Shown: piece after piece, positions 34,473 through 51,326 of the stretch
Layout: each line of letters opens with the position of its first letter
Numbering within the stretch: the first letter of the stretch is position 1
NCBI GenBank assembly: GCA_900617105.1
Contig: UYFQ01000506.1
Span: 310,001-369,691, forward strand
Direction of reading: 5' to 3'
DNA length: 59,691 nt
Source of the DNA: Hydrurus foetidus
Lineage: Eukaryota
Notes under the pieces: model-generated
Seen by the model: only the letters and a program-made list of their open reading frames with translations
Told to the model about the DNA's origin: nothing
Database searches by the model: none
Made by a program: the position numbers and the translations under genes

Positions 34473-35038
34473 GTGAAGGTAGCCGCCAGCTCGCTCCGCA
34501 AAGGCGCCGTCGTCGATATGGACGGCCGCCTGTATGTCGTTCTGACCGTCGACAACATCCACCCCGGCAAGGGCACCCCGGTGACCCAGCTGAACATGCG
34601 CCGCATCAGCGACGGCGTGAAGGTTTCGGAACGCTACCGCACCACCGAGCAGGTCGAGCGCGCCTTTGTCGACCAGCGCGACCACACCTTCCTGTACCAG
34701 GACGGCGAGGGCTTCCACTTCATGAACCCCGAGAACTACGACCAGGTCGTGGCCAGGCGGACGTGATCGGCGACGCCGCGCCCTATCTGCAGGAGAACAT
34801 GACGGTCCAGCTGTCGACCCACAACGACATCCCGATCGCCATCGAACTGCCGCGCACCATGATCCTGGAAGTCGTCGACACCGAACCCTCGGTCAAGGGT
34901 CAGACCGCCAGCTCGTCCTACAAGCCGGCCCTGCTCAGCAACGGCATCAAGACCACCGTGCCGCCCTATATCGCCGTAGGCGTGCGGGTGGTGATCCTGA
35001 CCGAAGACAACAGCTACCAGGAACGCGCCAAGGACTGA
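34473..35038 (+). CDS. efp: elongation factor P (frameshift ~34755)
   Basis: HPGKGT, FLYQD...[21 protein letters not shown]. Confidence 0.96.
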
Positions 35039-35066
35039 TTGGCCTCTTCCTTTCGACGACGACAAG

Positions 35067-35104
35067 AAAAGGCCCGGCGGTTACCCGCCGGGCCTTTGTT
35101 TTTT
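35067..35104. terminator. bidirectional rho-independent terminator
   Basis: aaaaggcccggcgg-ttac-ccgccgggcctttgtttttt between convergent efp and the TonB receptor gene. Confidence 0.85.
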
Positions 35105-35150
35105 GGACCGGTGCGATGGGCGACAGACCCACCGCACCAGGCTGGACGGG

Positions 35151-37599
35151 CTAGAATTCAGCCGCGAGGGTGACGAAGCCCTGGCGCGGCGGCTGCGGGA
35201 AGGCGGTGTAACCGCCCGAGTTGCTGGTCACGCCGGCCGTCGAGACGCCCTTCTTGTCGAAGAGGTTGGTGACGTTGGCGGACAGGCGCAGACCCTTCAG
35301 CATGCCCGCGTCGGCGACGTCGAAGTTGTAGCCGGCCTGCAGGTCGACCAGCATCATCGCCTTGACCGACAGGTCGTTCAGATAGGTGACGTAGCGCTTG
35401 CCGACATAGTCGCCGCTGATCTGGGCGTCGAACTTGCCCAGATTGACGCGGGCGATGGTCTTGTTCATCCAGCGCGGCGTCAGCGGCACGAACTTGCCGC
35501 CGGTGGCCACGGTCACCGGCGTGGAGACGCCGTTCACCAGGGTCGTGCCGCTCTGGTAGTCGCTGTCGTACTTCGACTCGTTGAACGAGACGGCGTTGTA
35601 GATCTGGAAGCGGGGGCCGAACTTGATCGTGCCCGCCACGTCGAGGCCCTTGGTGGTCACGCCGCCGACATTGGCCAGGATGGCCGGCGCCGGGTTGATG
35701 AAGTTGAACGGCGCGATGTTCAGCAGGCGGTTGCTGAACTTGACGTCATAGGCGTTGATCTGGCCCTCGACCCCGGTGATCGGGCCCCAGGCCACGGTGC
35801 GACGCGAGCGCAGGCCCGCCTCGTAGGTCCAGGAGGTTTCCGGCTTCACCGTCTTCTTGAACAGCTCGAAGGCGGCCTGGGTGCCCAGGCTCCAGGCCGA
35901 GAAGCCGTAGAAGCCGCTGCCCGCGCCGTACGGAATGAACTGGCGCATGTTCTGCTGCACGTTGACGAAGACCTGATCGTTCTCGGTGGCGTCCCACAGC
36001 AGGCCCGCCTGCGGCAGGAACCACTTGTTCGATCTGATGCTGCCGGTCGGGTACTGCACCGGCACGGCCACGGTCGGCAGGTTCTTCTGATTGATCGGGA
36101 ACTTGCCCGTCGCGTCCTGGAGGCTGGACTTGAAGCCGGCCTGCAGCAGCAGTTTGGCGTCACGCGCCACTGGTCCTGCAGGTGCAGCTGGACGTCGTTG
36201 ACGAAGAAGGCGTTGGCGTACTGGGTCAGCACCTTCTTGCCGCGCGGCACGTCGTACGGCGACAGGTTGTTATTGTCCTTGGTCATCGGATACCAGGCGC
36301 GCTGCTGGGCCGGTTCGTTGTGCTCGAACCACAGACCGCCCTTGATCTGGTGATCGCCCAGCGTCCACTCGACCGTCGAAATCGCGCCCGGACGGTTGAT
36401 GCGGTACTCGGTGGTGCGCACCGCATAGCCGCTGCCGCCGAACAGGTTGACGATGTTGGTCAGGGTGGCGGGGCTGGTGGTCGAGCCGACCAGGAGGCCC
36501 GGATAGTAGGTCGCGAACAGGCCCGGCAGACCAGCGGTGTTGACCGGCCCCGACACGATCCCGCGGCCGAAGTTGTAGTGATAATAGGCCTGGTTGGTCC
36601 AGGTCAGGTTCTCGGTCGGCTTCCAGGCGTACTTGACGTACGCCAGGATGTCTTCGCGCTGGGCGGCGCTGAAGCAGTTGGAGTAGTTGTTGCCCTGGGC
36701 CGGCGGCGGGGTGCCCGGACCGCCCGTCAGGTTGGCCGTGCAGCCGGCCAGATCCGGATAGATGAAGGCGCGGGTGTAGGGCTTGAAGCCCTGGGCCGCA
36801 GCGGTCTGCTGGTTGCCCATGGCCGTGGCGTCTTCGTTCGGCTCAACCTTCATCTGCCAGTCGGCGTAGAAGGTCAGCTCGCCCTTTTCACCTTCGTGGA
36901 CCAGCTTCAGGTTGACCTGGTGGCCACGCTGATGACCGTCGAAGTCCCAGGCCTTGGCGTCCTGGCGCAGGTACGACAGATAGCCCTTGAAGCCGCCGGC
37001 CATCTCGCCCGACTCGGCGCGCAGGAAGGTGCGCGAGGCGTCGTAGCTGCCGAAGGTCTGGTTGACGGTCAGGCCGCGTTGCGCCGACGGATCCCGGCTG
37101 AAGGTTTCGATCGCGCCGCCCAGGTTGCTGGTCGAGGGCACGCCCAGCGAACCGGCCCGACGACAGGGTGACGCGCGAGACGTTCTCGCTGGTCACGGCG
37201 CGCGAGACCGACAGGCCGTTGTAGCCGTACTGCTGGTCGCCCAGCGGCACGCCGTCCATCGTGAAGCCCAGCTGCTGGGTCGAGAAGCCGTGCACGAACA
37301 GCGACAGGTTCTGCTCGTTATTGCCCCACGGATCGGCGGTCCGATAGACGACGCCGGGCAGGAACTGGATGGTTCAGCGGGCTGGCGCCGGGGAGGACGC
37401 GCTGGATCTGCTGGCTCTCCATGGCGACGGCCGAGCGGGTTTCGCGCGTGCTGGTGACGACCAGCTGTTCGACCTCTGTCGATTCCGGGTTCGCCGGTGT
37501 GGTCGTGTCGGCGGCGTGGGCGCCGGTCGCCAGAAGGGCGCCGGCGGCGACGCCGCACCAAAGCCGCGCGGAGCGGCTGATCAGTCGATCAAAAGTCAT
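35151..37599 (-). CDS. TonB-dependent receptor (frameshifted)
   Basis: Signal peptide, EQLVVT TonB box, plug GFTMDGVP, NVTNLFDK, C-terminal Phe. Confidence 0.93.
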
Positions 37600-37660
37600 A
37601 TCTACCCCCGAGAGCGCGTTTCGGCGCACAGTGTTTCAGGGCGCGTGAGTATGGGTCGCG

Positions 37661-37700
37661 CGAGACGGTACTGCGACAGTCCTGCGACCTTGGCGTGAAG
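37661..37700 (-). promoter_or_regulatory. Pho-box-like 11-bp-periodic direct repeats
   Basis: On - strand ttcac, gtcgc, gtcgc, gtctc at exact 11-bp spacing upstream of the receptor. Confidence 0.5.
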
Positions 37701-38022
37701 GCGCGTGTTCAGGTCTGATGATCCCGGCGGATCGCCGTCTCGGCCACGAACCCGTCGCGCGGCTTCAGCCGTTTCGCCAGCTTGGGATTGTCGGCGCGCC
37801 GGACGAAAGGGTGGCCGGTGTCGGCCTCGACGGCTCTGGCCGGCCGGGCGCACCACCCGTCGGCGGCGTGTGGACAAGACCAGAAAGCGCTGTAGAGCTT
37901 TAGGTTGCCGGTCAAGGTCAGGGCGCACACCGCCTGGACCGCGACCCACGGCCCCCAACGGGCGATGTCTGAAGCTTGCGTTCCTCAAAGCAGGCTCAGG
38001 CGCCAGAACGGAGGTTTGAGTC

Positions 38023-38547
38023 ATGACCACGGTTCAGAGCACGCCGTTTCCCTCAAGCTCGCGGCTGGCCGAGATCTTTCCGACCAAGGCCTGGTTTCAC
38101 GACAGCTACGCCGCTCCGCTGACCCGCACCGACCTGTCGATGCCCGATCTGTTCTTCGCCATTTTTGCGCATCATCCGGACTGGCTGAAGGGCCTGCTGA
38201 TGGCCCGCAACCGGGTGGCGTCGCGCTTTGGGCTGGAGGCGCCCAGCGATGCCGATATCCGCAACCCGGTGCAACGCGCAGACTATCGCGTGGGCGAGAC
38301 CATCGGCCCCTGGCCGATCTTTGCGCTGTGGTCCGAGGAACTGGTCGCGGGTCGCGACAATGGCCACCTGGATTTCCGCGTATCCCTGTCCCGCCAGCAG
38401 GGGCCCAAGGGCCGGACGATCACGGTCAGCACCGTCTGCCACCCGCATGGACTGGCCGGAAAGGCCTATCTGCTGGCGGTCGCGCCGTTCCACAAGCTCG
38501 GCGTCAGAGGCCTGCTCGCCGACGCAGCGGCGCACGGCCGGATATAG
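38023..38547 (+). CDS. DUF2867 family protein
   Basis: FHDSY, P.WL..L..ARN, G.F..., GRDNGHLDFRVS, G.AYL..V.PFH. Confidence 0.85.
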   Translation: MTTVQSTPFPSSSRLAEIFPTKAWFHDSYAAPLTRTDLSMPDLFFAIFAHHPDWLKGLLMARNRVASRFGLEAPSDADIRNPVQRADYRVGETIGPWPIFALWSEELVAGRDNGHLDFRVSLSRQQGPKGRTITVSTVCHPHGLAGKAYLLAVAPFHKLGVRGLLADAAAHGRI

Positions 38548-38862
38548 ACAACAGCTGGACGCGCGCCCCCGCCCTTGCGCCACCACTTAGCGGCCGAGCC
38601 GGGTACCGCGCGCAATCTGAGCGGATTTCCCTGAGCGGGCTTTCTTCGCCGCCGACCCGCGCCCCGTCGCGGGATCCCACCCTAAAACCCTTGGTGGAAT
38701 TGGAGCTCTGGCTGAGGGTCTCAGGCGCGGGGTAGCGCCCGCGCCAGGGCGCTGAGGCGCCAGCCCGGCAGCGACGGCCCCTTGACCGCGGGGGGCGATC
38801 GGACGGCCCTTCGCCGCGAGATTTAGGGATGGCGCCCTTCGGCGCGAAGGTGGGCGCGCTCC

Positions 38863-38994
38863 CAAGTCCTCTCCCTGAAGGGGGAGGCGATCACGAAGTG
38901 ATCGGAGGGGGTAGTGCTGCTGAGCCATTGCGGTCTTCCCCCACCGGCCCCCGATCAAGTCGGGGACCGCCTCCCCCTTCAGGGGGAGGACTTG
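38863..38994. repeat. palindromic repeat with terminal inverted repeats, copy 1
   Basis: caagtcctctccctgaagggggagg...cctcccccttcagggggaggacttg; inverted copy at 49256-49378. Confidence 0.8.
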
Positions 38995-39045
38995 CGGGGA
39001 TACGCCGTGCTCAATCCCCGTTCTTTTGAGAACAAACCCCAGCCC

Positions 39046-39107
39046 AATCAACCGCTTGTAAAATAGTTGATCGCGCCCATCAGACGCGCTCAAACCTCCC
39101 GTATTCT
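39046..39107 (+). promoter_or_regulatory. IHF-consensus site plus putative -10 (copy 1)
   Basis: aatcaaccgcttg fits WATCAANNNNTTR; tattct at 39102-39107; block conserved in copy 2. Confidence 0.5.
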
Positions 39108-39109
39108 TG

Positions 39110-39505
39110 TCCCACCTCGTCGCGAGGAAAGGGCGCAAGGCCAGCGACCATTGCGGCGGCGGGGGGTGATCGAGCGGGACTGGGGTCGAGGGGGATACTC
39201 GACCGGTCCGGGGATCCTGGCGTTGCAGGACCCGCCCGCCGTCGGCGTGGATGGGGATCAAGGCGAGTGTTGGTCAGGATTGGCCCCACGCCCCCCGACC
39301 TCCGGGACTTCGGGAAACCGAAGCTTCCGGGTTCCGGTAAGGCCCCAACTGGGCCACCCGCTGGGACGCTGATGGATAACGACCACGCGGAGCGCTCGGC
39401 TTCGTCGAAACGGTATTTTCTATCTCTCATCCGGACGTGGTCCGGACGCTCCGCGACCCTTTCCACCCCCATCGGCGGTTTTCCGCGCGAGGTGTGAAAC
39501 CGTGT
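39110..39505 (+). ncRNA. candidate large structured RNA, copy 1
   Basis: No credible ORF; conserved blocks and covarying stems relative to 48695-49130 (-). Confidence 0.55.
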
Positions 39506-39544
39506 CCGTGCCCCAGGTTGTAAGTCCAGGCTGCGCCCAAACAG

Positions 39545-39572
39545 AAAGGCCCGGAGTCGCCTCCGGGCCTTT
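39545..39572. terminator. rho-independent terminator after etfA, possibly bidirectional
   Basis: aaaggcccggag-tcgc-ctccgggccttt. Confidence 0.8.
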
Positions 39573-39594
39573 CCAGGGTCTTGTGGGCGCAAGC

Positions 39595-40534
39595 CTACTT
39601 TCCGGCGGCGGCGAGCGCGTCCATCAGTTCGGGCACCGCGGTCTTGTAGTCGGCGACCAGGCCGAAATCGGCGACCTGGAAGATCGGGGCGTCGCTGTCC
39701 TTGTTGATGGCGACGATGATCTTGCTGTCCTTCATGCCGGCCAGGTGCTGGATGGCACCCGAGATGCCGATGGCGACATACAGGGCCGGCGCCACGACCT
39801 TGCCGGTCTGACCGACCTGATAGTCGTTGGGGGCGTAGCCCGCATCGACTGCAGCGCGCGAGGCGCCCACGGCGGCGCCCAGCTTGTCGGCCAGGGGCTC
39901 GATCACCCGCTGGAACTCTTCAGCCGAGCCCATGGCCCGACCGCCGGAGACGACGATCTTGGCCGCCGCCAGTTCGGGGCGGTCGGACTTGACCATCTCT
40001 TCGCTGACGAAGCGGGTCTTGTCGGCTTCCGCGCCGGAGGCGTTCTCGACCGGGGCCGAGCCGCCCTCTTCCGCCGCCGCAAAGGCGGTGGGACGCACGG
40101 TGATCACCTTCTTGGCGTCCGAGGACTGGACGGTTTCGAGGGCGTTGCCGGCATAGATCGGGCGCACGAAGGTGTCGGCCGAGACGACTTCCACGATCTC
40201 GCTGATCGGGGCGACGTCCAGCTTGGCGGCGACGCGCGGCGCGAAGTTCTTGCCGCCCGACGGGCCGGAACCAGGATCGCGTCGATAGTGGCCGGCCAGG
40301 GCCAGCACGGCGTCGGCTTGCGCCTCGCCACGCTGTGACCCAAGGCGGCGCTGTCGGCCAGCAGGACCTTGCGGACACCGCGATCTTGGCGGCCATGTCG
40401 GCCACGGCCTTGGCGTTGTGGCCCATGACCAGAACGTCCACGTCGCCCGAAAGCTTCAGGGCGGCGGTGACGGTCTTGTGGGTGCCATCGCGCAGGTGCG
40501 CGTTGTCGTTATCGGCGACGACGAGAACAGCCAT
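39595..40534 (-). CDS. etfA: electron transfer flavoprotein alpha (frameshifted)
   Basis: [44 protein letters not shown]. Confidence 0.97.
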
Positions 40535-48549: not shown

Positions 48550-48589
48550 GGCCGGTCAGTTTCAGCCGCCTCGCGCTCCCGACTCGGTT

Positions 48590-48688
48590 GCTTCGCGGTC
48601 GTCCTCCCCCGTAGGGGGAAGATGAGGTCGGCGCGTGTCAAATCCCCCTCCGGGGGACCCCGGTCGCGAAGCCCCCATAGGGGGAAGT
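48590..48688. repeat. palindromic intergenic repeat, second copy of the 14786-14906 family
   Basis: cgcggtcgtcctcccccgtagggggaagatgaggtcggcgcgt shared. Confidence 0.75.
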
Positions 48689-48694
48689 CTGGCG

Positions 48695-49130
48695 GACACG
48701 GGCTCTCAGCCTCACGCGGCATCAGCCACTGAAGTTGGGGAGGCGCGAAGCGGCCGGGGCGAACCCGGATGACCGTGATGTGTGTTTTGCGTTTCGGCTC
48801 GACCTGTCCGCTTCGCAGAAGCTGTTCTTGCGTGAGGATCGGGCCAAGCGAGCGTCTTTCAGCTCTGATACCCAAGAGCCCCCGTACGGGCGCGCACCAA
48901 GGTCGATCGGCTAACCGTCTCGACCCCCGACGATGCGCGATAGGCGGGTTTACGATCCCTCGCCCTGTTGCTCCGCGCTGTTCCTCCGACGAGCCTTCCG
49001 GTGGTCCCGGATCAATCCAACGAACAGACCACCTTCGTCCTCGCCGCGTGACCGCGCGGCCCCGCTCAGCTCCATCCCCATCGCCGCTGTTGGGCCGGAT
49101 CCAGGCGCCTCCCCCTGCGACAGGGACAGC
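48695..49130 (-). ncRNA. candidate large structured RNA, copy 2
   Basis: Same ordered blocks and stems as 39110-39505 with compensatory substitutions. Confidence 0.55.
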
Positions 49131-49134
49131 TCTG

Positions 49135-49196
49135 ATTATGCAGGCGGTTTGAGCGCCGAGGATTGGCGCGATCAACTATTTTACAAGCGATTGATT
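49135..49196 (-). promoter_or_regulatory. IHF-consensus site plus putative -10 (copy 2)
   Basis: - strand aatcaatcgcttg (49196-49184); cataat (49140-49135). Confidence 0.5.
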
Positions 49197-49255
49197 GGGC
49201 TGGAGTTTGGTCTGCAAAGAACGGGGATTGAGCGCCCTCTATCCCCGTGCGGCCT

Positions 49256-49378
49256 CAAAGTCCTCCCCCTGAAGGGGGAGGCGGCCGGAGGCCGGTGGGG
49301 GAAGACCCCTCCGGCTCAGCAGCACTACCCCCTCCGATCGCTTCGCGATCGCCTCCCCCTTCAGGGGGAGGACTTGGG
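49256..49378. repeat. palindromic repeat with terminal inverted repeats, copy 2
   Basis: aagtcctccccctgaagggggagg...cctcccccttcagggggaggacttg. Confidence 0.8.
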
Positions 49379-49401: not shown

Positions 49402-50240
49402 CTACTTGTTCCCGGAATAGGGCACGCCCTTGACGGTCTCGTCATAGGCAGTCGGCGGGTTGTCCGGCAAGTTGAGCAGCTTGGCCTTGGGCGCGCTCAG
49501 TTCCCGCACCCGCCAGGCATTGGGTCCAACGCGCGTGAAGACCGCCTCGGTCTGTTCGCCGCTGCTGGTCAGCTCCATGCCCGGATTGGCCTCGTCGCTG
49601 GCCGGACGCAGGCAGTAACCCTTGATCTCGGTGTCGCTGACCCATTTCATGGTCAGGCAGCGCGACTTGAACTCGAATTTGCGATGCGGCTTGCTCGACC
49701 AGTCGAGCAACTGGGTGCGGGCGCGGGCGTCGTCGCCGGCCTCCCAGGTCTCGTCCTGGCCTGAGCTGGCCAGCACGGCGCCACGCCACTCGCCGAAGGG
49801 GACAGATTCGATTTCGACGCCTCGCTTGTCGTAGAGGGTGATGCCGGGCCCGTCGGGCGAAGCGAAATAGTCAGTGGTGACCTCGTAGACGGACTGCACG
49901 CCGTTGACGGTGGGTATCTGGATGACATTGGTCAGCAGGCCAGGTTTCTGTCGTCATCACGGTGAGGGCGGCCACGCCACTGTGCTGCAGCGTCAGGGTC
50001 GGACCCAGGCTCCCGGCTGGCCCAGTTCCTTCAGCAACCTCGCCGACGCGCCCCGCGTCACGTGCGGCGCACAGGTCGAACTGCGGCAGCTCCGGGCCCG
50101 CGCAGCGGCGGACGTCGCCGGTGCGACAGGCTTGGCCGCTTCGGCCGGCGGCTTGGCGGCGCCGGGGAGCTTGTCACAGCCGGACAGGGCGGCGAGGACG
50201 GCCAGGCTGCGAGCGTCACGGATCTGGACTGGAACGACAT
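49402..50240 (-). CDS. hypothetical lipoprotein, paralog A (frameshifted)
   Basis: LAALSGC lipobox; C-terminus TRVGPNAWRVRELSAPKAKL...PPTAYDETVKGVPYSGNK. Confidence 0.7.
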
Positions 50241-50481: not shown

Positions 50482-51326
50482 CTATTGATTGCCCGAATAG
50501 GCCACGCCCTTGACGGTCTCGTCATAGGCCGTCGGCGGGTTGTTCTCGGCGTCCATCAGCTTGGCCTTGGGAGCCCGCAGCTCGCGCAGGCGCCAGGCGT
50601 TGGGCCCAACGCGCGTCACGATCGCATCAATTTCCTCGTCATGGCCGTTGAGCTCAACGCCGGGTGAGGCGTCGTGCAACGCAGGACGCGAACAGAGGGC
50701 CCTCAGCTCTGTGTCGCTGGTCCAGCGGGATGCGTTGCAGCGCGCCTTGAAGACATATTTCCGGTGTGGCGTCTTCGTCAGGTCGTGCAGCTCGAGGGTG
50801 TTGTTGCCCGCAGAATCAATGTCGTAGGCCGAATCGTTCCAGGAGATCGCCGCGATGGCGCCGCGCCAGTCCGCCCAGTGGCCATAGGTCTCGATCTCGA
50901 CGCCGTTCTGGTCGAACAGGGTCACGGAGGGATCATCGACCTCCTCCGTGAGGCTGTGACCGACTTCATAGTGGAGCTGCTCGACGCCATCGCGGGTCAT
51001 CTTGAAGACCCGTTGCAGAGTCCACGCTTGGCCTTCGGGGTTTTTCAGGGACAGCACGACCTTGCCGTCGCGCCGGATCGTCAGGGTGTCGCCCTGGCGC
51101 GCCTCGGGTTGGCCCAGTTCCTTGAGAACCCGAGCCTCCTGGTCGTTCCCGTCAGGCGGTTTCCGCTTCCACATAGGCGGGCCCTGCCGCGCTTCTGGAT
51201 CGGCTGAGCGCGGCGCGTCGCCGGCCTCGCGGCGCCGGGCGGCGCTGGCTTCTGGTCGCAACCCGCCGCCAGCAGCAGCGCGGCCGTCAACAGCATCCCG
51301 CGTGCGGGCTTCACTTCAAGAGCCAT
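50482..51326 (-). CDS. hypothetical lipoprotein, paralog B (frameshifted)
   Basis: LLAAGC lipobox; C-terminus TRVGPNAWRLRELRAPKAKL...PPTAYDETVKGVAYSGNQ. Confidence 0.7.

Follow-up and report, generated by a model that had tools for sequence, protein, structure and literature searches.

Large structured RNAs are rare in bacteria, and most of the known ones are either ribozymes or RNP machines. Among the large noncoding classes, OLE, GOLLD, ROOL, HEARO, and raiA are multi-helix, pseudoknotted molecules of hundreds of nucleotides, and HEARO is also multi-copy and mobile. The bridge RNA of IS110 and the omega/reRNA non-autonomous units of IS200/IS605 are structured, non-coding, promoter-bearing, and repeat-associated, and type III toxin-antitoxin systems place tandem pseudoknot RNA repeats upstream of a ToxN, CptN, or TenpN RNase. 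Regarding catalytic RNAs, the HDV-like ribozymes are built as a nested double pseudoknot with P1.1, and their catalytic C lies in J4/2, ahead of the 3' strand of P2.

Two described families come closest to the element reported here. The CIR repeats of Caulobacter are ~110 bp long, with two arms and a GANTC site (reviewed in PMC2229807). CIR1-CIR4 and our element share the clade, the intergenic position, and the multi-copy state, and the two-armed palindromes that flank the element resemble those described in that review; however, the element is 3-5 times longer, promoter-driven, and pseudoknotted, and lies beside such palindromes, in a comparison based on published descriptions. The Extended TwoAYGGAY RNAs of Pseudomonas (RF01731; bioRxiv 10.64898/2026.09.22.753630) are alike in being dispersed structured RNAs with tens of copies per genome in variable number, in having a 3' pseudoknot and a fixed position beside REP arrays, and in that their function is not known. 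In contrast to them, our element has neither AYGGAY loops nor a match to RF01731, its fold differs, with a pseudoknot that embraces the whole molecule, it has its own promoter cassette and a swappable middle, and no doublet arrangement was seen.

The window is a stretch of 59,691 nucleotides (positions 310,001 to 369,691 of contig UYFQ01000506.1, assembly GCA_900617105.1, deposited as Hydrurus foetidus), and it holds two members of what is apparently an undescribed RNA gene family. Our preferred reading, to which we give a probability of about 0.4, is that these dispersed large RNA genes behave as a non-autonomous selfish cassette linked to palindromes. Its RNA would bind protein, as a scaffold or RNP on which the persistence and spread of the copies depend.

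Two Copies of an RNA Gene

39114 to 39508, plus strand: copy 1 of the RNA gene, subfamily A (start at 39114 predicted; 3' end approximate)
48693 to 49128, minus strand: copy 2 of the RNA gene, subfamily B

Both sequences were verified where a first-pass annotation had placed them. Copy 1 is intergenic, with a DUF2867 gene on one side and the convergent 3' end of etfA on the other, and copy 2 is intergenic between an unnamed ORF and a glutathione-S-transferase-like gene (the latter named by inspection). The first pass had called the copy-1 stretch gene-free, and the ORFs crossing either copy all lack the GC3 of real genes. The copies are 63% identical in the 5' domain, 50% in the middle, and 58% in the 3' domain, and in pairwise alignment the ~250 bp of upstream DNA are much more alike between the two than the RNA bodies. 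No third copy was found in the window.

Two points of the first-pass description had to be revised. Its two-copy RNA is instead a family, with at least 50 copies in the nearest genome, and, of the ordered blocks that it listed, the two middle ones, CA(A/G)GGCGAG and C(C/T)CGCT(G/T)GG, are not kept in alignments across the family. It had also overlooked the shared upstream DNA (palindrome, hairpin, IHF-like site, and -10 box) and the long-range helices P2 and P3.

A Pseudoknotted Core with an Exchangeable Middle

39114 to 39167, plus strand: P1 stem with nested P1a, holding a purine bulge at 39126-39136
39126 to 39464, plus strand: P2 pseudoknot, purine bulge 39126-39136 with pyrimidine tract ~39452-39464
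39166 to 39386, plus strand: P3 helix (39166-39172/39380-39386), closing the variable modular middle
39387 to 39454, plus strand: P4 helix closing the 3' domain, with CGAAACGG motif 39406-39413, linker ~39415-39430, and P5 39431-39445
39466 to 39508, plus strand: terminal variable hairpin and 3' motif, no U-tract
49073 to 49128, minus strand: P1 of copy 2
49105-49115/48737-48746, minus strand: P2 of copy 2
49067-49073/48818-48824, minus strand: P3 of copy 2
48809-48816/48745-48752, minus strand: P4 of copy 2
48754 to 48768, minus strand: P5 of copy 2

Folding of single sequences gave z values of -1.27 and -1.26, which are not significant; the evidence for the structure is comparative. The first pass had proposed a 5' stem (39114-39123/39156-39167), a helix in which G-C is exchanged for A-U (39387-39394/39447-39454), and a CCGG hairpin, and all three are present and pair family-wide. 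The two strands of P2 lie ~330 nt apart, and P3 is a 7-bp helix that spans ~200 nt. In permutation tests made without correction for phylogeny, cognate P2 duplexes averaged -20.5 versus -17.2 kcal/mol (38 distinct types; none of 100,000 permutations gave so low a mean); cognate P3 duplexes averaged -11.5 versus -7.3 kcal/mol (27 types), with the P3 sequence fully turned over between subfamilies. Pairing of the post-P1 strand with the apical loop, an alternative to P3, was rejected (p 0.996). Within the 3' domain, 93.5% of 643 cells are paired, compared with 29-49% in slid controls, and 24 double changes occur versus 6.0 in shuffles (0 of 500 as high).

Across species, subfamily A has double changes in 34 of 107 predicted pairs, and in these pairs G-U cells outnumber A-C cells by 234 to 12, in a prediction whose method itself allows G-U. 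The sense strand folds more stably than the antisense in 10 of 11 cases. At lenient cut-offs, the core helices can form in 143 of 144 elements and are intact in 49 of 49 copies of the nearest genome, a near-universality that is partly built in, as the elements were chosen by matches to both domains. Collectively, these comparisons, none of them tree-corrected, support a pseudoknotted core, P1-P5, that appears to be conserved by compensating mutations. The middle enclosed by P3 varies from 99 to ~340 nt across the family, and whole elements from about 300 to 540 nt.

The linker of the 3' domain measures 14-18 nt in 96 of the 101 distinct versions compared, a set without the B-type, and has 2.9% G in a genome with 67% GC. 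It is the sole hypervariable single-stranded tract, and this nearly G-free composition fits an unstructured linker better than a programmable guide, so that the guide-type RNA suggested by the first pass finds no support.

A new or rearranged ribozyme would be another way to account for the core. The P1-P2-P1a nesting is analogous to the HDV-like order, the topology is pseudoknotted, and CGAAAC(G), which recalls the hammerhead G block, occurs in all 144 Caulobacteraceae elements (partly selected on it). This explanation appears very unlikely to us. In the hammerhead, as described in PMC10085705, block C (CUGAnGA) lies next to stems I and II and block G (GAAA) between stems II and III; in our elements, CUGAnGA occurs in 7 of 144 on the sense strand and 5 of 144 on the antisense. 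The stems flanking CGAAACG lack covariation support, and the motif is missing from the version of the element found in a second family (f154, below). Regarding the HDV-like fold, the P1-P2 order matches, but only 0-3 nt separate P4 from the 3' strand of P2, and there is no C-GAA junction before that strand; nor did Rfam return any ribozyme match. Group I and II introns, including permuted ones, were rejected, with 0 of 144 elements matching the R, S, and D5 patterns that were used. Domain V has an AGC/CGC triad; the AGC of P4 is replaced by GGC in 9 of 43, where the opposite strand has changed along with it.

Promoter, Palindromes, and Transcription

38863 to 38994, no strand: CIR/REP-like palindromic repeat between genes, with two arms of 30 nt, upstream of copy 1
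38996 to 39027, plus strand: hairpin with T-rich tail (common to 36 of 50 copies)
39046 to 39058, plus strand: IHF-consensus-like site (11 of 50 copies match exactly, and 33 of 50 have the ATCAA core)
39102 to 39107, plus strand: predicted -10 box, 6-7 nt before the first P1 base
49258 to 49375, no strand: palindromic repeat upstream of copy 2, same type as that of copy 1
49135 to 49246, minus strand: upstream cassette of copy 2 (hairpin 49223-49246, IHF-like site 49184-49196, -10 box 49135-49140)
48575 to 48688 (edges approximate), no strand: second palindrome type, directly downstream of copy 2

These counts refer to 48 copies of the nearest genome and the two of the window. A -10-like hexamer, in one of three interchangeable forms, stands 6 or 7 nt before the first base of P1 in 50 of 50 copies; no canonical -35 was seen, and a sigma-70/terminator scan found nothing. 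The T-tailed hairpin at 38996-39027, for which that scan made no terminator call, is possibly an insulating terminator, and the site at 39046-39058 resembles the IHF consensus. A motif search of supplementary files 1-12 of Zhou 2015 (PMC4287350) returned no such promoter.

A long palindrome of one of several types (scored as a perfect 12-bp inverted repeat within 300 nt) lies upstream of 43 of 50 copies, compared with 12 of 400 background tiles and with 11 of 50 copies on the downstream side. The orthologous site of copy 1 in the nearest genome has a palindrome of a different type. The palindromes flanking the window copies contain no GANTC site. DUF559 (Vsr-like) genes are found between the arms of, or beside, the palindrome types that precede the RNA (L095:3400-3880; L007; L034; L284; L312), and the palindromes look like nuclease-less derivatives of DUF559 cassettes. 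Further upstream, a conserved module with a long internal inverted repeat precedes the palindrome in about one third of the copies of the nearest genome, 250-480 nt before the -10 box (L021, L024, L027, L029-L033, and others), and part of it is present at 38790-38850 of the window. In that genome, the palindrome fronting one copy has an IS481-family transposase gene immediately upstream of it (L005:2152-3348), and the end of the same element precedes a second copy (L377:700-1030).

Evidence of transcription came from six RNA-labelled metatranscriptomes of six studies, all of which have contigs on the copy 1 RNA at a depth of 2-50; these contigs are low-depth and unstranded, and come from runs picked because they contain the stretch. 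The 5'-most pieces among those listed stop at 39111-39135, near the predicted start. All six lack cover at 39023-39069, a kind of gap that was not counted as silence, whereas a further run without a recorded kind (X20) covers all 29 bins; one of the six (X14) also has cover on the upstream palindrome. These data point weakly to transcription from the predicted promoter near 39114.

The same observations bear on whether the element is simply a DNA-level repeat of MITE or REP type, with hairpins acting in single-stranded DNA and transcription being incidental. Its repeat-like distribution and palindrome linkage would suit such an element, but the -10 spacing is fixed, the helices are long-range, nested or pseudoknotted, and rich in G-U on one strand only, the sense strand folds more stably in 10 of 11, and the contigs from RNA libraries stop near the predicted start. 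As terminal inverted repeats and target duplications are also missing, we regard this explanation as highly improbable, and the selfish cassette working through its RNA is preferred.

Family Size and Distribution

The nearest genome (G001; 4.05 Mb in one contig) has 21 copy-1-like, 11 copy-2-like, and 17 ends-only copies, i.e., 49 analysed copies that fall into 9 middle types; of four extra matches, one was confirmed with both domains, which brings the number to at least 50. Among 81 congeneric genomes at least 95% complete, the 3'-domain motif occurs in 55, with 4-39 matches in 49 genomes, 1-2 in 6, and none in 26, and the reversed-pattern control matched once. Within the family of the window's genus, 34 of 151 genomes and 10 of 27 genera are positive by BLAST, and 36 of 151 genomes by the motif. 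Broken copies are few; one has its 5' half replaced by AT-rich foreign DNA (L294:950-1500).

A GTDB-wide scan with a loose pattern listed at least 120 loci, and among the 120 listed, 24 score at least 58 bits with the covariance model built here, the other 96 being chance or weak. The titles of 21 of these 24 name Caulobacter, Brevundimonas, or Caulobacteraceae, and the remaining three, each of them possibly misbinned, belong to an Alphaproteobacteria MAG, an Alsobacter MAG, and a Lysobacter scaffold of 505 bp. Order-wide, the model had matches in 12 of 21 genomes of the same family, in 2 of the 20 searched from family f154, and in none of 60 further genomes. The f154 matches represent a version that has diverged in sequence while keeping the plan; it is multi-copy, with 23 matches in one genome (G368), and has its own G-C/A-U exchange in P2. 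This version was found in one genus (6 of 6 genomes, against 0 of 75 others in that family), and the 5' domains of the two versions were too divergent to be aligned for a second model. A class-wide search, which scored 22-34 candidates per genome and may miss diverged relatives, was strong only in two genomes of the same family; it gave two 30-bit matches elsewhere, one of them a short 3'-domain look-alike without the 5' domain. Viral contigs, plasmids, and phages were searched and gave no family match.

Turnover of Copies and Exchange of Middles

Both window sites are filled in the nearest genome. At the copy-2 site, another congener (G096) has the same flanks with a C-type copy in place of subfamily B. 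Sites without the element were seen in other congeners, in four of them for copy 1 and in three for copy 2, and one (G065, L098:3850-3900) retains at the otherwise empty copy-2 site a short relic of the 3' motif, which suggests loss by deletion. Many loci are shared: 11 of 16 in G096 are common to the nearest genome, and some extend to more distant congeners.

At 9 of 12 orthologous loci of these two genomes, the middles differ (identity 0.78 or less), and at 3 loci the middle matches a non-orthologous copy at 0.89-0.98; this swapping at shared loci points to gene conversion. The gap between leuB and bioB holds a 121-bp palindrome in G096, and palindrome, promoter, and RNA in the nearest genome; at this filled/empty junction one palindrome is replaced by another plus the cassette, without duplication. 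Terminal repeats and target duplications were looked for and not found (longest 6-7 nt), and derivation from a MITE or an IS was rejected because of such short repeats and this replacement junction. As the untranscribed upstream DNA travels with the gene, and RVT_1 has no match in the nearest genome, the spread appears to proceed by DNA.

The surroundings of the copies also change. The ~3.7 kb upstream of copy 1 (35036-38716, including the DUF2867 gene) have no counterpart at the orthologous site of the nearest genome (L087/L088), and G096 has yet other genes there, so that this flank of the cassette turns over fast. Upstream of copy 2 are tandem paralogous ORFs (49402-49899 and 50482-51261, minus strand) without Pfam match; in G096, the end of such a paralog also precedes a B-type copy near the copy-1 site, which suggests local rearrangement between inverted copies.

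The main rival of the selfish cassette is a host-beneficial scaffold or sponge RNA, whose dose would be raised by gene number and whose uniformity would be kept by concerted evolution, as in rRNA operons, and which would titrate an abundant RNA-binding protein through the G-free linker and A-rich loops. The -10 box in 50 of 50 copies, the core intact in 49 of 49, the loci common to species, and the absence of a mobiliser gene among those sought all agree with it. However, the element was not found in 26 of the 81 congeners at least 95% complete, nor in most genera of the family, the copy number goes from 1 to about 50, filled and empty sites together with palindrome linkage are typical of repeats, and the depth in metatranscriptomes is low (2-50, with depth being a poor measure there). 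We therefore hold the host-beneficial RNA to be rather unlikely, and continue with the selfish cassette.

Coding Capacity and Downstream Genes

The first pass had argued that selection acts on RNA structure and not on protein, and this is supported by the covariation, by element lengths spread over all three frames (61, 39, and 44 of 144), and by the fate of the lone sense ATG in the copy-1 type, which 3 of 16 nearly identical copies have lost. On the grounds of these lengths and lost start codons a protein-coding gene was rejected; a 29-aa sense ORF and the overlapping ORFs of 101 and 170 aa are not conserved.

Its other suggestion, a long regulatory leader, fails for the family taken together, although it may apply to a subtype that is followed by a small ORF. 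The nearest downstream gene is in sense orientation for 79 and in antisense for 64 of 143 copies, and the neighbours are unrelated housekeeping genes (74 flanking ORFs scanned), on which grounds a riboswitch or 5' leader was rejected for the family generally. Apart from orthologs and 4 DUF559-like genes, no recurring protein family was seen among 281 flanking ORFs.

Small orphan ORFs stand behind a minority of the copies. One ORF family of 77-111 aa with an Arg-rich N-terminus was matched 12 times, in 8 of 251 genomes. In 11 of these cases the ORF directly follows one RNA subtype (within about 250 nt), at sites several of which are unrelated; the remaining match is partial and overlaps an apparent truncated 5' domain. 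The ORF family has 71 database homologs and a confident predicted four-helix model (pLDDT 85.8), without Pfam (over cut-off), PHROG, PDB, or Atlas match (best fold Z 4.1). Other, unrelated orphan ORFs, of 65-150 aa with basic N-termini and RBS-like motifs, stand directly downstream of divergent copies (L039, L066, L072, L252, L282, L293, L058, L315, L325, L349), that of L039 being confined to 3 close genomes plus one weak match; they are possible de novo genes fed by the cassette promoter.

It is conceivable that the ancestral unit was promoter, RNA, and small ORF, as a type III-like antitoxin/toxin pair or a structured translational leader, and that the ORF-less copies are amplified orphans. 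The presence of the ORF family behind the RNA at every one of its 11 true loci, which are spread over 8 of 251 genomes and several unrelated sites, its homologs and helical model, and the other orphan ORFs behind divergent copies all speak for such a unit, and the order of promoter, pseudoknotted RNA, hairpin, and small ORF resembles type III systems in this one subtype. Nevertheless, we judge it unlikely, given that the ORF family was not found in the nearest genome or in 29 genomes of the window's genus (0 of 29), that it has no Pfam, PHROG, or PDB match, that 64 of 143 copies face a convergent gene, and that the RNA lacks the tandem repeats of type III antitoxins. The element is a single large RNA, its ORF an 80-110-aa helical orphan, and most copies are ORF-less. 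As a member of type III itself the element was rejected: it has no tandem repeats, and the downstream ORFs have no Pfam match over cut-off.

Tests against Known Classes

The first pass could match the RNA to no known family, and Rfam 15 likewise gave nothing: the window has 0 matches at the gathering threshold, and at relaxed thresholds the element stayed unmatched in 6 related loci. With E up to 10, the region 38950-39600 returned only a 16.8-bit miRNA hairpin, and ARAGORN 0 genes. Thus 6S, RNase P, SRP, tmRNA, riboswitches, ribozymes, group I/II introns, OLE, GOLLD, ROOL, HEARO, and TwoAYGGAY were rejected by the absence of an Rfam match. A ZMP/ZTP riboswitch (58.4 bits, above gathering) lies about 450 nt downstream of one B-type copy (L016:2545-2625) and is unrelated to the element. 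The element differs further from OLE, GOLLD, ROOL, HEARO, and raiA in having no embedded or adjacent nuclease ORF and in being missing from the phage and viral collections searched.

Regarding mobile systems, an IS110 bridge-RNA element was rejected as no DEDD recombinase (PF01548) was found in G001, G110, or G368, and a retron, DRT, or other retroelement ncRNA as no reverse transcriptase is linked: RVT_1 (PF00078) has 0 matches in G001, and no RT is among the recurring neighbours, in a search that very divergent RTs could escape. Y1_Tnp (PF01797), the HUH transposase of REPIN/RAYT and IS200/IS605 elements, was not found in G001 or G110, and is present in G368 and in the element-free genomes G028 and G109. 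The element also differs from the IS110 and IS200/IS605 units in that two high-copy genomes have no IS110 or Y1 match, and in having no target-matching guide and a G-free variable tract. DUF559 and GIY-YIG genes occur alike in carriers and in G028 and G109, and 2 of the 5 DUF559 genes of G001 are directly upstream of copies. None of RVT_1, Y1_Tnp, IS110, DUF559, and GIY-YIG, each searched in 5 genomes, separates carriers from non-carriers.

A full-text literature search, including sequence motifs, found no description of the family; subscription journals were largely uncovered by it, and supplements of motif collections could contain the family. The published C. crescentus ncRNA table (PMC4117421) lists unnamed ncRNAs of 400-520 nt and a short ncRNA just upstream of recF, where the nearest genome has a copy. 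Matching copies to these ncRNAs by length and neighbour led to the 415-nt CCNA_R0109 inside rpoC, a case that shows how length alone misleads. The family is placed outside the known classes because none of the membership tests that were run assigned it to one. There is also a real, if minority, chance that, when a partner comes to light, the RNA will be recognised as a variant of a mobile-element RNA already described.

A Model for Spread

The first-pass alternative of a large multicopy ncRNA or mobile RNA is the one that has held. A repeat-like distribution, empty sites, palindrome linkage, and DNA-level exchange, on the one hand, and a conserved fold and promoter, on the other, are best joined by a selfish RNP cassette. 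In its favor are the multi-copy-or-absent pattern among the 81 congeners and in the f154 genus, the empty sites, the palindromes at 43 of 50 copies versus 12 of 400 tiles, the 2 of 5 DUF559 genes upstream of copies in the nearest genome, the swapped middles at shared loci, and the constraint at the RNA level (P2, P3, and the G-U excess). Against it stand the failure to find a mobiliser or recurring neighbour gene, the absence of terminal repeats and target duplication, the age of many loci (11 of 16 in G096 are in the nearest genome), which fits retention by the host equally, and the lack of any match in viral contigs, plasmids, and phages, so that no horizontal vehicle was seen.

According to this model, the unit of palindrome, hairpin, IHF-like site, promoter, and RNA gene would move as DNA, and its targets would be intergenic sites at gene ends that otherwise hold a palindrome. 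Movement would probably occur via break and repair started at the palindromes, with another copy as the template; the palindrome-riding DUF559 and GIY-YIG nucleases are candidates for the break, and the same repair would swap the middles. Regarding the RNA, we infer that stacking of P1, P3, P4, and P2 may produce a closed core able to accept whatever folded middle is present, and that protein may be loaded at the G-free linker of 14-18 nt.

A bolder proposal is a new class of selfish element based on a large ncRNA, i.e., a promoter-bearing, protein-free cassette whose pseudoknotted RNA, as an RNP or itself catalytic, would drive its own copying and exchange at palindromes without RT, IS110 recombinase, or RAYT; this we consider doubtful.

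Outlook

The family combines a fixed pseudoknotted core, a freely exchangeable middle of 100-340 nt, and intact copies that number in the tens, each with a predicted promoter; the genus in whose genomes it occurs includes a major model organism. In RNA-seq analyses that keep only uniquely mapped reads, copies that are nearly identical would probably drop out. The tolerance of inserted middles makes the RNA a natural scaffold for structure work and engineering. If the cassette is selfish, it would represent spread by DNA without a recognised transposase or RT; if instead it benefits the host, it would be a missing, and probably abundant, RNA of Caulobacter biology.
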